A program made the position numbers and the translations under genes. A stretch of DNA of 31,894 nt from a virus (Duplodnaviria > Heunggongvirae > Uroviricota > Caudoviricetes): the IMG/VR virus record IMGVR_UViG_2558860161_000001. One strand, 5' to 3'. Numbering within the stretch: position 1 is the stretch's first letter; each line of letters starts with the position of its first letter. The notes beneath the pieces were generated by a model. The model did not search any database. It was given only the letters and a program-made list of their open reading frames with translations, and had not been told where the DNA came from. Below, piece by piece: positions 114 to 31,894 of the stretch.

Positions 114-178
114 CGAACGTAGGCCTGATGCGGCGTGATTAGACTTGAGATAAATGACAGGGGATAAGTGAGATAATT

Positions 179-213
179 ATGGGAAGTACTGGGTCAACAT
201 GGGAAGAGACTGG
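179..213. repeat. Direct repeats ATGGGAAG-N(1-2)-ACTGG at 179..193 and 199..213 near the prophage left end; candidate transposase-binding sites
   Basis: Two near-identical 14-15 bp direct repeats about 20 bp apart in the non-coding stretch between appX and mor. Related half-motifs AGACTGG/AGACTTG occur at 141..147, 207..213 and 250..256, and GAGATAA(A/T)T at 147..155 and 170..178. Confidence 0.4.
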
Positions 214-296
214 ATGGAATATGCAATAACCTTACAGTATGTGAAAATAAGACTGGCCCGAAAAAAACAGAACTCGCACCAGCCTGATTGCAGATA

Positions 297-686
297 TTAC
301 TCCTTTTTCCCTGTATCGGCATCAGGTTCGCCATCAAACAGTTTGCCCTGCATCCGATCCAGTTCTTCTTTTCTGACCCGCTTCACCACGCTGTAAACCC
401 ACTGTAGTGAAACACCAAATTTGCGGGCCAGTTCGTGATGGTTGCGCCCGTCAAACTCCAGGAAAATTTCCCGGTCGCGCTGGCTGACCTTCCAGACCAT
501 GCCCATCGGAAAATAGACGTTTTGCCCACCCCAGACCTGCATCATGCGGTTCGCGACGGCCTGACCAATCTGGTCGGCAACTGCGGGTTCGATATCAATA
601 ATCTCGCGGACAGTCTCAGAGGTATGCTGTGCCAGTTCCACCAACAGTTCCGGCCCTTTACTACGAAACTGATTCAGGTCGCTCAT
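297..686 (-). CDS. mor: Mor/C-family transcriptional activator (Mu middle operon regulator homologue)
   Basis: Translation has the Mor/C C-terminal HTH signature (GGQNVYFPMG ... FNGRNHHELARKFGVSLQWVYSVVKR) resembling Mu Mor. Start moved to the internal ATG at 684..686, which has a GGGAG Shine-Dalgarno and an ATGA overlap with the upstream stop. Last gene of the leftward early operon. Confidence 0.8.
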   Translation of the reverse strand: MSDLNQFRSKGPELLVELAQHTSETVREIIDIEPAVADQIGQAVANRMMQVWGGQNVYFPMGMVWKVSQRDREIFLEFDGRNHHELARKFGVSLQWVYSVVKRVRKEELDRMQGKLFDGEPDADTGKKE

Positions 687-1111
687 TGCTTCACTCCCGC
701 AGCTCTGCGCTGCCACTTCTTCAGTTTCTCAATCACGCTACTTGCCTGCTCATTGCTGAGCCAGCGTAACGCGCTGATGCCGGTTTCCCGTTTAACCCAC
801 AGCGCCAGCGCCTGCTCTGAACTGTCACGGACGATGCCTGCGGCAGCCATTTCAAGCCATAGCGCACGGATTTTCTTTGACTGCGGATGGCTGTCGAGCG
901 GTAAGCCGGACTTGGCTTTCCCGGCAGGCTTAATGCGAAAGCCTTTCTTTTTCATTGATTCCAGCACGCGGTTTAGCTGTGGGGTATCCATCCCTTTGGT
1001 TGAGGCTTTGCCGGTCAGCCCCTGTAGCATCTGGCGGTAGGTGTCCTCATCCATCTGGAGGTCGCTGCGGGCAATATGAATGAGTTGAATAAGACGCTGC
1101 TTAGTCATCAT
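683..1111 (-). CDS. gemA: GemA-like protein (Mu gp16, DUF1018 family)
   Basis: Translation MMTKQRLIQLIHIARSDLQMDEDTYRQMLQGLTGK...NRVLESMKKKGF matches the conserved GemA N-terminal motif. ATG at 1109..1111 is preceded by an AAGGAG Shine-Dalgarno. The longer track ORF (to 1300) was rejected. Confidence 0.75.
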   Translation of the reverse strand: MMTKQRLIQLIHIARSDLQMDEDTYRQMLQGLTGKASTKGMDTPQLNRVLESMKKKGFRIKPAGKAKSGLPLDSHPQSKKIRALWLEMAAAGIVRDSSEQALALWVKRETGISALRWLSNEQASSVIEKLKKWQRRAAGVKQ

Positions 1112-1316
1112 TGCCACTCCTTTTACCTGCGCCACCGATATAGTCGACATATAAAGGAAGCGCGACAGGCCAGCACAGGAACATAACGGCCCAACTGATC
1201 CAGTGTCCGGTACCGCTGTAACGTGAGTAAAACCCTGAACGGCGGTGCAGTTCAGCAGTACACCACCCCACGAGACCATACCAGAACAAGGCACATACAA
1301 TTGATTCAGCCATCAT
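1101..1316 (-). CDS. Small hydrophobic protein (71 aa, two predicted TM helices), function unknown
   Basis: ORF with ATGA overlap to the upstream gene stop. Hydrophobic stretches IVCALFWYGLVGW and WISWAVMFLCWPVALPLYV. No recognisable family. Confidence 0.5.
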   Translation of the reverse strand: MMAESIVCALFWYGLVGWCTAELHRRSGFYSRYSGTGHWISWAVMFLCWPVALPLYVDYIGGAGKRSGNDD

Positions 1317-29346: not shown

Positions 29347-29377
29347 GGCGTTCCCGCACAGGGGCAATACTGCCCCC

Positions 29378-29725
29378 ATGAAAACAACTTCCGTATTCTG
29401 GCAACCGGCCCTGCAGGCCCCTGGCGAAATCGTCCGGGGGCTGGATGATATCTGGCAGGCCATTCAAATCATCCTGCGAACTCCTCGCGGCAGCGACCCG
29501 CATCGCCCGGAGTTCGGCAGCAACCTGCATCTTTATATCGACTGGCCCATCGACCGGGCTATCCCACATGTGGTGCGCGAGTCCGTTGATGCCATCCGGC
29601 GCTGGGAGCCTCGCTGCCAGCTTATGTCGGTTAAACCCGCCGTCGACGGTGAACATCTTACGCTCCGGGTGAGCTGGAAAGGCTCTGACGGACAGCCCCG
29701 GACTCAGGAGCTTTTATGGCGCTGA
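29378..29725 (+). CDS. Baseplate wedge protein (GPW/gp25 family)
   Basis: 115 aa. IQIILRTPRGSDPHRPEFGSNL ... RWEPR aligns well with P2 gpW. Confidence 0.8.
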   Translation: MKTTSVFWQPALQAPGEIVRGLDDIWQAIQIILRTPRGSDPHRPEFGSNLHLYIDWPIDRAIPHVVRESVDAIRRWEPRCQLMSVKPAVDGEHLTLRVSWKGSDGQPRTQELLWR

Positions 29726-30819
29726 CAGAACCCGATTTTATTGAACGCGATGCCGACAAAATCACGGCTGAAATGATTGCTCAGTACGAAGCCGCAACCG
29801 GCAAGACGCTGTACCCCGCCCAGGCTGAGCGCCTGTTGATTGACCTGTGGGCATACCGCGAAATGCTGGTCAGGGTAGCGGCGCAGGAAGCGGCCAAACA
29901 GAATCTGGTCGCCTTTGCCCGTGAGCCGATGATTGATTACCTCGGTGAACTGGTCGGTGTTTACCGCCTTGCCGCGCAGCCTGCCACCACCACTCTCCAG
30001 TTCTCCGTGGATGAGGCACTGGCCATTGATGTGCTGATTCCGGCAGGCACCCGCGTCAGCGCTTCCGACAGCATTATTTTTGCCACCGATACGGACGTGG
30101 TGCTGAAAGCCGGATTGCTTCTGGTCAATGCCACGGCCACCTGTACCGAACCGGGAGCCGCTGGCAATGGCTGGCAACCTGCGCAGGTCAGTCAGTTGCT
30201 CGATGAGATTGATAACGTCGACCTGCAGGTGACCAATCTGATGGCAAGTTCTGGCGGTTCAGAGCAGGAAGACAATGACAGGCTCCGCGAGCGTATCAAA
30301 CTGGCCCCGGAGTCATTCACCAACGCCGGAAGCCGTATGGCATACCGCTTTCATGCCATGCAGGCCCATCCCAACATCGTCGACGTCGCTGTGCTCTCCC
30401 CGGTTCCCGGCACCGTAGAACTGTATCCGCTGCTCAGTACCGGCCTGCCGGAGGACAGCATCCTTACGCTGGTAGAGAGTTTCTGCTCGGACGAAAAAGT
30501 CAGGCCGCTCACTGACACCGTGCGGGCTAAAACACCTGTGCAGGTGGATTACGCCATTGAAGCCAACATCACTATCTATCGTGATCAGGATGCCAACTCG
30601 ATAAAGGACAACGCCAACAGCGCCATACAGAACTGGGTGGCGTCCCGTACCGCCACGCTGGGGCGCGATATTGTCCCCAGTCAGATTATCAGCGTGCTGT
30701 CCGTTGCCGGAGTGTATCAGGTCGAACTGGTGACACCAGTGCTGAAGGTAGTGGCAGAAAACGAATGGGCAAACTGTACGGCGATCACTCTTAACATGAC
30801 CGGGGTGTCCGATGGCTGA
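29716..30819 (+). CDS. Baseplate J-like protein (P2 gpJ/Mu gp47-like)
   Basis: 367 aa following the W-like gene. Confidence 0.8.
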   Translation: MALTEPDFIERDADKITAEMIAQYEAATGKTLYPAQAERLLIDLWAYREMLVRVAAQEAAKQNLVAFAREPMIDYLGELVGVYRLAAQPATTTLQFSVDEALAIDVLIPAGTRVSASDSIIFATDTDVVLKAGLLLVNATATCTEPGAAGNGWQPAQVSQLLDEIDNVDLQVTNLMASSGGSEQEDNDRLRERIKLAPESFTNAGSRMAYRFHAMQAHPNIVDVAVLSPVPGTVELYPLLSTGLPEDSILTLVESFCSDEKVRPLTDTVRAKTPVQVDYAIEANITIYRDQDANSIKDNANSAIQNWVASRTATLGRDIVPSQIISVLSVAGVYQVELVTPVLKVVAENEWANCTAITLNMTGVSDG

Positions 30820-31390
30820 GCCGCTACAACTCCCGCCACCGCTTGAGGGTGATATCAGTCTCAGAACGCTGGGAAGACTCGCCGGGCGGCTGGATAACAT
30901 CGACCTGAGCGTACTGATGGTCTATCTCGTCGATATTGTCGACAGTTCCGCGCTGCCATGGCTGGGCGAGCAGTTCTCACTGTTCGGCGATGGCTGGGAG
31001 CTGGCGGAATCTGACGATGTACGCCGCATGCTTATCAAATCCGCTATCGAGCTGCACCGCTACAAAGGGACGCCGTGGTCAATCAGGGAAATTATCCGCC
31101 GTTTCGGCTTCGGCGAAGTGGATCTGATTGAAGGCACTGGCCAGATTGGCTACGACGGCAAACACACTTACAACGGGCTTTTCGTTCATGGCGATGCGGA
31201 AGCCTGGGCGGTATATCGCGTCATCCTTCAACAGCCCATCACTAACGATCAGGCGGCGCTGTTACGCCAGACGCTCGCTGCTTTTGCTCCGGCCCGCTGC
31301 CATCTGGCAAGCCTGGAGTATCAGTCTGTCGCCATTCGCTACAACAACACCGCCAACTATGACGGCAGCTATAACCACGGGAGCAGTTAA
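30812..31390 (+). CDS. Tail protein I-like (P2 gpI/Mu gp48-like)
   Basis: 192 aa following the J-like gene. Confidence 0.7.
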   Translation: MAEPLQLPPPLEGDISLRTLGRLAGRLDNIDLSVLMVYLVDIVDSSALPWLGEQFSLFGDGWELAESDDVRRMLIKSAIELHRYKGTPWSIREIIRRFGFGEVDLIEGTGQIGYDGKHTYNGLFVHGDAEAWAVYRVILQQPITNDQAALLRQTLAAFAPARCHLASLEYQSVAIRYNNTANYDGSYNHGSS

Positions 31391-31392
31391 TT

Positions 31393-31894
31393 ATGGCAAA
31401 CCTACCTGAAACACCGCAGTGGGAAGAAGGCATCTACCAGATTGAGGTCTCTGACCCCGTTCTGGGTGGGCCTGACGGAATCTCTAACCGTCAGGGTAAA
31501 CAACTGGCCAGCCGCACGCTGTACCTGAAGCAACAGGTTGAAAAAGGCGGTTCTGAACTTGCGAAACACATCGCGGCAGCAGACCCGCATACCCAGTACG
31601 CACCGAAAGCCAGCCCGACATTCACCGGCACGCCAACAGCGCCTACGCCTGCAAATAGTGATAACAGCAAGAAGCTGGCGACGACAGAGTTTGTGGCCAA
31701 AGCACTTGCGGCGCTTGCTGGCAGCGCTCCTGAGACGCTGGATACGCTCAAAGAGCTGGCTGATGCCCTCGGCAACGATCCGAATTTTGCGACCACGGTG
31801 TTGAACAAGCTGGCGGAAAAGCTGGCCAAAGACCAGCACGGCGCAGATATTCCTGACCCGGCGCTCTTTGTCAAAAACCTTGGTTTGGGAGAAG
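31393..31894 (+). CDS. Tail fibre protein, N-terminal part (truncated by window end)
   Basis: ATG at 31393, open to the window end, so not in the ORF track. My translation MANLPETPQWEEGIYQIEVSDPVLGGPDGISNRQGKQLASRTLYLK...PTFTGTPTAPTP is a conserved tail-fibre N-terminus. Confidence 0.75.
   Translation, partial: MANLPETPQWEEGIYQIEVSDPVLGGPDGISNRQGKQLASRTLYLKQQVEKGGSELAKHIAAADPHTQYAPKASPTFTGTPTAPTPANSDNSKKLATTEFVAKALAALAGSAPETLDTLKELADALGNDPNFATTVLNKLAEKLAKDQHGADIPDPALFVKNLGLGE

Follow-up and report, generated by a model that had tools for sequence, protein, structure and literature searches.

The DNA stretch analyzed here (31,894 nucleotides, IMG/VR virus record IMGVR_UViG_2558860161_000001; referred to in its full length as the window) contains a prophage that resembles the transposable phage BcepMu. 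Positions 136 to 31894 very probably cover 93%, counted from the left end, of a BcepMu-type myovirus that is temperate and transposable and measures approximately 34.3 kb; it has transposed into the cbdX-appA intergenic hairpin of an Escherichia coli chromosome. Genes were mapped using the RefSeq gene calls of the prophage copy in strain AW1.7 (34,303 bp), along with Pfam, PHROGs, and PADLOC scans. The window contains 46 complete genes and 1 truncated gene, all free of internal stop codons, at a coding density of approximately 95% and a G+C content of 56%; the host is E. coli.

To place the element, all proteins of the AW1.7 copy were compared with those of BcepMu (NC_005882) and Mu. The analysis revealed BcepMu homologs for 36 of the 47 window genes, with identities between 30 and 79% and with order and orientation unchanged (gp01, gp02, gp05, gp08, gp09, gp10, gp12, gp21 to gp23, gp25 to gp32, gp34 to gp42, and gp44 to gp52), whereas Mu homologs were detectable for only about 10 of 47 (Mor, GemA, gp27 to gp31, gp36, gp47, and a short tail fiber match). 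The 14 genes between 297 and 8132 are all on the minus strand and are read leftward in the order 74-amino-acid helix-turn-helix (HTH) protein, HTH regulator, DUF3102 protein, transposase (TnpA), ATPase, eight small or accessory genes, GemA, and Mor. From 8221 onward the genes are on the plus strand, with a Dam-like methylase gene (9248 to 10018) as the sole exception. BcepMu and phiE255 likewise combine a leftward arm of regulator, TnpA, ATPase, GemA, and Mor with a rightward arm of repressor, lysis genes, Mu-type head, and P2-type tail, and BcepMu also shares the TG...CA termini, two subterminal motifs at the same positions, and an Rz1 gene embedded in Rz. The organization of BcepMu, its Tn552-IS1604 relationship, its terminal CA, and its P2-like tail have been described (PMC2771037).

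These data agree with a preliminary description of the sequence, which had assigned it to the BcepMu group, in line with the paper just cited, and had proposed a leftward early operon, rightward lysis, head, and tail genes, a Mor gene in terminal position beside the host junction, and a P2-like baseplate with U, X, D, V, W, J, and I, for which Pfam matches were obtained in P2 order. Its account of content and orientation is correct, since the gene map agrees with it and neither a tRNA gene nor an integrase domain was found in the window. The Mu-type genes that it listed were recovered in the case of the DDE transposase, the P-loop helper, GemA, Mor, F, and G, whereas its Ner is weakly supported and its I and T genes were recognized through BcepMu. 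Two positions have to be revised, namely, the immunity region, which had been called central and lies 8.1 kb from the left end of the 34.3-kb element, and the left end itself, which had been set at 114 and is found at the 135/136 junction.

Phage ends and insertion sites

Bases 1 to 135 of the window (plus strand) are host DNA with 100% identity to ordinary E. coli chromosomes. They comprise the 3' end of appB (1 to 8), cbdX, also called appX (21 to 113), and the start of the cbdX-appA spacer with the first half of its hairpin, and the appB and cbdX sequence shows 100% identity to that of E. coli E2865. When the window was aligned with six further copies of the prophage, the left end fell at position 136, which reads TGATTAGACTTGAG..., and three more left junctions from an IMG/VR scan agree with this end; seven to ten independent left junctions all begin with TGATTAGACTTG. 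The right end (...GCGCGGCGCATCA) was read in AW1.7 and five other copies and lies beyond the window, past whose end the prophage continues for approximately 2.5 kb, as judged from related copies. The termini of the related E. coli copies are thus 5'-TG...CA-3', as described in BcepMu relatives (PMC2628397). At both ends, TGA is followed by two GAGATAAAT-like motifs at positions 12 to 20 and 35 to 43 (23 bp apart), and the BcepMu ends have an equivalent layout, with GTGAGATATTT and GCGCGATATTT at matching positions. In the left terminus of the window (136 to 179, plus strand), which starts with 5'-TG, the motif GAGATAA(A/T)T is present at 147 to 155 and 170 to 178, and these two copies are putative transposase-binding sites.

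A perfect 6-bp direct repeat was observed directly outside the TG...CA termini at all seven independent insertion sites of related copies, as the preliminary description had suggested checking. The duplications are GTAGCT in adiA (AW1.7), GTCTTG in ompF (1436), GCGCAT in an aldolase gene (Ecol_542), GCAACG in gadC (CFS3292), GACAAT in csgC (HH107), GTTTCG near yjfY, and CCCTGC in narU (730V1). For a further insertion, in ynfE (isolate 44), the right junction begins with ACTGAC. Duplications of 6 bp are the footprint of B3/Tn552-family transposases, whereas Mu generates 5 bp (PMC8705779). The empty site of the copy in the window reads ...GCCTGATGCGGCG|CATTAGCATCGCATCAGGC..., and the predicted duplication is therefore GCGGCG, the last six nucleotides of the host flank, within the cbdX-appA hairpin.

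Several observations concern the insertion sites. The hairpin between cbdX and appA (GCCTGATGCG...CGCATCAGGC; window side, 114 to 135) holds the phage, which parts appA from the upstream appCB-cbdX genes, and this junction was absent from every complete E. coli genome in the collection searched. Acid resistance genes account for two of the seven interrupted genes (adiA, gadC, ompF, csgC, narU, ynfE, and the aldolase gene), a sample too small to speak of a preference. The first six duplications began with G, and we considered a bias toward targets starting with G, or a phage end reading ...CAG; this was dropped as a selection artifact, because the right-end BLAST matches chosen had extended into the GT of the AW1.7 flank. 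In 11 of 24 right-end matches the similarity stops exactly at CA, and the sites in narU and ynfE break the pattern. The notion that the record of phage PhiKM starts at the left phage end was also rejected, as this record is permuted, begins at the small terminase gene, and is therefore uninformative on termini.

Relatives and mobility

Of 5,426 complete E. coli genomes, 81 contained no less than 80% of the first 25 kb; the copies were spread over many chromosomal positions, with up to three matching places in strain 730V1. From position 136 onward, the window differs from the AW1.7 prophage, which resides at a different locus (adiA), by only five substitutions, located at 8654, 15349, 17404, 19203, and 19747. 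Four of them are in coding sequences, and all four are nonsynonymous and affect structural genes (portal F219Y, G protein L137P, capsid A142V, and cement protein D2G). Phage records matching at 86 to 98% were Phi06_2974 B (KM389306), the KP12_2 clone (OM835952), and PhiKM (PQ738613). Together with the prophages of AW1.7, 1436, and 730V1, these share 86 to 100% nucleotide identity with most of the window and differ from it in insertion site. One of these records deserves a comment: OM835952.1, entitled "Klebsiella phage KP12 clone KP12_2, partial sequence" and filed under Vequintavirinae, is 96.9% identical over 94% of the query and looks more like copurified material, either an induced prophage or host sequence, than like a piece of a Vequintavirinae phage.

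We therefore asked whether the element might be a defective or cryptic remnant that is no longer mobile. Such a reading could draw on the right end being outside the window, on a case for activity that rests on sequence, and on a bioRxiv survey whose title calls temperate gut phages predominantly inactive. However, all 46 complete genes in the window are intact at a coding density of 95%, near-identical copies with clean 6-bp duplications occupy many loci, one genome has up to three matching places, close relatives have been deposited as phage records, and Bcepmuvirus prophages were among those induced from gut isolates (PMC12629997). We thus regard a remnant as unlikely and a mobile BcepMu-type prophage as the better account.

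Transposase and helper ATPase

The TnpA gene (4915 to 6684, minus strand) encodes an rve-type DDE transposase with the catalytic residues D160, D254, and E290, which were invariant across an alignment of 94 family members; an exhaustive search returned 1,088 representatives of the family at 50% clustering. BcepMu gp09 aligns with 581 of the 589 residues of TnpA at 68% identity. Its Pfam rve score of 31.4 bits is just below the gathering cutoff of 32.6 bits, and BcepMu gp09 likewise gives only a subthreshold rve match; because of this score, the classification of TnpA rests on the homology to BcepMu, profile comparisons, and a structure model.

In BLASTP searches, TnpA showed no similarity to MuA (E value, 3.1) and weakly matched the core region of Tn552 p480 that contains the catalytic residues, for which the sequence in pN315 was used (24% identity over 144 residues; E value, 2e-5). 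Families were also compared with hhalign. The TnpA family aligned with the Tn552 family over 374 columns with a probability of 99.4% and an E value of 7e-22, in a match that extends from the N-terminal HTH region across the DDE core to the beta domain that follows it, whereas the comparison with the MuA family gave a probability of 0.95% and an E value of 0.058; the Tn552 and MuA family alignments matched each other with an E value of 1e-8. Searches against solved structures returned only marginal matches to retroviral integrases with the single TnpA sequence, and retroviral integrase cores (E value, 2e-10) and Tn7 TnsB (E value, 1e-6) with the family profile. An AlphaFold2 model of TnpA (pLDDT, 91.3) matched best the strand-transfer complexes of ShCAST TnsB (E value, 4e-18), followed by IstA, Tn7 TnsB, and then the Mu transpososome (E value, 4e-10). 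Taken together, these data place TnpA structurally in the Mu/Tn7/Tn552 class of DDE transposases and, by sequence, with Tn552 and not with MuA, as the preliminary description had stated; BLASTP against MuA, Tn552, and BcepMu was the check that it proposed.

The neighboring gene (3738 to 4904, minus strand) encodes the transposition helper, a P-loop ATPase with a Pfam AAA_22 match (E value, 3e-20) and 60% identity to BcepMu gp08. MuB and BcepMu gp08 also match AAA_22, and sequence searches of the helper against solved structures gave generic P-loop matches only. It is the counterpart of MuB and of Tn552 p271, and TnpA and the ATPase are, judging from their sequences, orthologs of BcepMu gp09 and gp08. 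In pN315, the open reading frame that follows p480 (13288 to 14046, annotated as a recombinase) has AAA_22 in its N-terminal part together with resolvase and HTH_7 domains, an arrangement resembling a fusion between a truncated Tn552 ATPase and a resolvase.

Compared with p480, a member of the TnsB/TniA/IstA group, TnpA shares a partner P-loop ATPase and a 6-bp duplication typical of B3/Tn552 (PMC8705779). It differs in that Mu-transpos_C, matched by p480, was undetected by sequence in TnpA, in an extra C-terminal region of approximately 150 residues, and in serving a phage genome of 34 kb, whereas p480 serves a transposon of 6.5 kb.

These comparisons bear on the possibility that the element is a Mu-family (Muvirus) prophage whose early region was inverted by rearrangement. 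There are indeed clear links to Mu: the transposable lifestyle, the TG...CA ends, homologs of Mor, GemA, gp27 to gp31 and gp36, among them the small (TerS) and large (TerL) terminase subunits, the portal, F, and G, and a tail fiber inversion module of the Gin/gix type, with identities of 47% for TerL, 48% for F, and 69% for Gin and a common gix core. In contrast, MuA and MuB have no detectable sequence relation to TnpA and the ATPase, either by BLASTP or by profile comparison. Pfam detected DDE_2, HTH_Tnp_Mu_1, HTH_Tnp_Mu_2, and Mu-transpos_C in MuA, and rve and Mu-transpos_C in p480; DDE_2, HTH_Tnp_Mu, and Phage-MuB_C domains were not detected in the element, although Mu's own proteins match them strongly. 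In Mu, early and late genes are codirectional and the immunity region is at the left terminus, whereas the arms are divergent here; Mu has its own tail module, whereas the E. coli element has a P2-type tail; and the target duplication is 5 bp in Mu (PMC8705779) and 6 bp in the E. coli lineage. The entire layout is that of BcepMu. A rearranged Muvirus is consequently very improbable, the transposase comparisons already being sufficient to refute it.

Tail fiber segment and recombinases

The last gene of the window (31393 to 31894, plus strand) encodes the constant N-terminal part of a tail fiber protein and is cut by the window end; the full AW1.7 gene encodes 317 amino acids with a Collar domain. 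Within it, a gix-like inverted repeat of 29 nucleotides (31866 to 31894, plus strand) forms the left boundary of an invertible tail fiber segment. In AW1.7 this repeat is 93% complementary to a partner 1.8 kb downstream, the two bracketing a segment of 1.85 kb, and its core, AAAACCT(T/C)GGTTT, is also found at the boundaries of the Mu G segment. In related copies, the 2.5 kb past the window contain the remainder of the fiber gene, two oppositely oriented fiber assembly genes, an inverted alternative fiber C terminus, and a serine recombinase of 193 amino acids. This Gin-type protein is 69% identical to Mu Gin and is the only recombinase besides the transposase. Judging from its sequence and from the gix-like repeats, it forms part of a host range inversion switch and not of an integration system.

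The window and the left repeat end on the same base. This points to an interruption of the assembly at the invertible segment; the probable cause is that both orientations were represented among the reads behind the source contig. Contigs of such prophages tend to break at the invertible tail fiber segment, as here, and this may serve as a practical warning.

No tyrosine or large serine integrase was detected in Pfam scans of the window genes, none of which has an integrase domain and which cover approximately 95% of the phage part, and ARAGORN found no tRNA gene in the window. The preliminary description had reported neither an integrase nor a tRNA attachment site and had named an integrase with an att site as the finding that would speak against it; the only other recombinase is the invertase beyond the window, an inversion and not an integration system. 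That the element is an integrase-dependent P2-like prophage merely carrying a transposon-derived DDE gene, as its P2-like tail and baseplate and the serine recombinase gene near the right end of related copies might suggest, can practically be discarded, since this recombinase is a Gin homolog with gix-like repeats around the tail fiber genes, no integrase or tRNA gene is found in the window, and the scatter of the insertions (adiA, ompF, gadC, csgC, narU, ynfE, the aldolase gene, and intergenic sites) and their 6-bp duplications exactly at TG...CA already refute it.

Early, immunity, and accessory genes

The last leftward gene (297 to 686, minus strand) encodes a late transcription activator of the Mor family (Pfam Mor; E value, 1e-42; 53% identity to BcepMu gp01 and 30% to Mu Mor), the only Mor/C-family gene in the element. 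It is preceded in the operon by GemA of the Mu gp16 family (683 to 1111, minus strand; Pfam GemA; E value, 3.7e-41; 47% identity to BcepMu gp02 and 35% to Mu gp16). The region from 1101 to 3735 (minus strand), annotated with Pfam and PHROGs, contains semiessential early genes and small open reading frames, among them a DUF2786/DUF7168 gene (1313 to 2002), a fragment of a MazG-like pyrophosphohydrolase gene (1989 to 2285), and a DUF3164 gene (2837 to 3448) that is the only one in this region with a BcepMu homolog (gp05; 44% identity). Upstream of TnpA, the DUF3102 gene (6688 to 7596, minus strand) and the HTH regulator gene (7606 to 7911, minus strand) are homologs of BcepMu gp10 and gp12, respectively.

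The first gene of the early operon (7908 to 8132, minus strand) encodes the small HTH protein of 74 amino acids and occupies the Ner/Cro position. Only weak signals were obtained for it, with E values of 0.007 for HTH_35, 5e-5 for phrog_769 ("transcriptional repressor"), and 0.084 for Mu Ner in BLASTP, and it is better described as Ner or Cro positioned than as Ner. The 88-bp divergent intergenic region that follows contains a candidate early promoter, TTGACA-16-TACAAT (8177 to 8204, minus strand), that matches the consensus at 11 of 12 positions, this match being the sole basis for its designation. On the other side is the CI-type repressor gene (8221 to 8631, plus strand), with matches to HTH_3 (E value, 6e-11) and Phage_CI_repr (E value, 8e-6) and a weak one to BcepMu gp17 (phmmer; E value, 3e-5).

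Directly 3' of the repressor gene is an accessory region of low G+C content (8673 to 10018) with two genes, neither of which has a BcepMu homolog. One encodes a lipoprotein of 175 amino acids (MRKLFLPLIFVLSGC...; 8673 to 9200, plus strand) with an LSGC lipobox and a G+C content of 41.7%, for which Pfam and PADLOC gave no match and the sole match was phrog_10002, of unknown function. It is a candidate accessory gene expressed in the lysogen, perhaps with a role in superinfection exclusion. The other encodes an orphan D12-class (Dam-like) adenine methyltransferase (9248 to 10018, minus strand; MethyltransfD12; E value, 1e-27) with a G+C content of 50.7%. The phage part contains 63 GATC sites, as opposed to approximately 120 expected from base composition alone, a crude control. 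PADLOC gave no match for the lipoprotein or for the DUF2786, DUF3102, and DUF3164 proteins. Between the methylase and holin genes, a G+C-rich inverted repeat (GACCAGCC...GGCTGGTC) is followed by a short T-rich stretch, GTTCTTTC (10121 to 10170, plus strand), which may act as a terminator and shield the late operon against transcription coming from the repressor side. No RNA family was found in the window with Rfam, and Tandem Repeats Finder reported nothing.

Lysis, head, and tail genes

The rightward arm continues with a lysis cassette of holin, SLT endolysin, and Rz (10266 to 11996, plus strand), identified by Pfam Holin_2-3 and SLT matches and by homology to BcepMu gp21 to gp23. The Rz gene (11343 to 11996, plus strand) contains an embedded gene for an Rz1-like lipoprotein (11692 to 11958, plus strand), which encodes MKKVRAIPLSACLLAVSC....

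The head module (11993 to 21262, plus strand) is collinear with BcepMu gp25 to gp38 at 43 to 67% identity and also detectably matches Mu gp27 to gp31 and gp36; Pfam matches include Portal_Mu, virion morphogenesis protein G, Mu Gp36, and Gp37. Its order is two small genes with homology to gp25 and gp26, Mu Gp27 (TerS), TerL, Mu portal, Mu F, G, protease/scaffold, major capsid protein, cement protein, Gp36, Gp37, and gp38 homolog. The I-like gene (17668 to 18765, plus strand; 49% identity to BcepMu gp32) and the T-like gene (18779 to 19732, plus strand; 45% identity to BcepMu gp34) had no Pfam match, and BLASTP, also with relaxed thresholds, detected no similarity of these genes to I or T of Mu. 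The contractile tail and baseplate are of the P2 type (21252 to 31390, plus strand; Pfam). These genes are collinear with BcepMu gp39 to gp51 at 30 to 79% identity, and sheath, FII tube, E/E' chaperone, tape measure, U, X, D, V, W, J, and I follow each other in the order of P2 and BcepMu.

Discussion

The collinearity with BcepMu, the Tn552-type transposase, and the 6-bp duplications at TG...CA termini identify the element as a BcepMu-type transposable prophage. Some points weigh against this identification or limit it. The rve match of TnpA is subthreshold, and the promoter and transposase-binding motifs are predictions from sequence only. Since the right end is not in the window, the completeness of this copy and its own target duplication are extrapolated from relatives that are at least 97% identical.

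The element also differs from BcepMu in several respects. Nucleotide similarity is confined to the sheath and tube genes, with 75% identity over 6% of the query (megablast), and the divergent parts are the genes in the middle of the early operon as well as the immunity/accessory region, the lipoprotein and the Dam-like methylase being present only in the E. coli element. The right end of BcepMu carries an acyltransferase gene, and a fiber inversion system is lacking there (PMC2771037); the E. coli lineage has the Gin-type invertase and an invertible fiber segment. Descriptions of the BcepMu group date back to 2004, and ICTV recognizes a genus for it, for which the criterion in ICTV practice is roughly 70% nucleotide similarity. 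Applied strictly, with BcepMu as the reference, the values above leave the element outside Bcepmuvirus; GenBank files the related phage PhiKM under this genus.

The life cycle outlined below transfers steps from Mu and BcepMu biology to parts, orientations, termini, duplications, and family relationships that the analysis showed. In the lysogen, the CI-type repressor (8221 to 8631) would shut the divergent early promoter (8204 to 8177). Upon induction, the leftward operon would yield the small HTH regulator, TnpA, the ATPase, the accessory proteins, GemA, and, lastly, Mor. TnpA, bound to the subterminal motifs, would nick at the terminal CA and join the ends to a target, picked by the ATPase, with a stagger of 6 bp, and repeated replicative transposition would amplify the genome. 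Mor would then activate the rightward lysis, head, and tail genes; the Mu-type TerS, TerL, and portal would package DNA from integrated copies by a headful mechanism, and the P2-type contractile tail would deliver it. The Gin-type invertase just past the window would flip the 1.85-kb fiber segment, so that the host range would alternate.

The identification of this prophage is correct but ordinary, and the type is already known, because near-identical prophages are present in the 81 complete E. coli genomes mentioned above. Prophages of this kind are routinely reported in the literature from E. coli, Salmonella, and gut isolates, near-identical sequences are found in RefSeq and GenBank, and an E. 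coli BcepMu-like prophage with an invertible region of 2.6 kb has already been reported (PMC11610265). The finding leaves the knowledge of transposable phages unchanged, and its value is mainly one of annotation: the appropriate label for the region is BcepMu-type transposable prophage, with position 136 as the left end and GCGGCG as the predicted 6-bp duplication.

For the biology of the host, the insertion sites appear most relevant. The phage inserts almost anywhere, and copies in other strains accordingly knock out adiA, gadC, ompF, and csgC, which could matter for acid resistance and envelope phenotypes. It is conceivable, and we advance this tentatively, that the lineage is an active hybrid, with a BcepMu backbone and the Gin/gix switch of Mu, that, as a natural mutagen, disrupts stress and envelope genes by insertion in strains from food, cattle, and clinical sources, and whose lipoprotein and methylase may add functions in lysogenic conversion or antirestriction.

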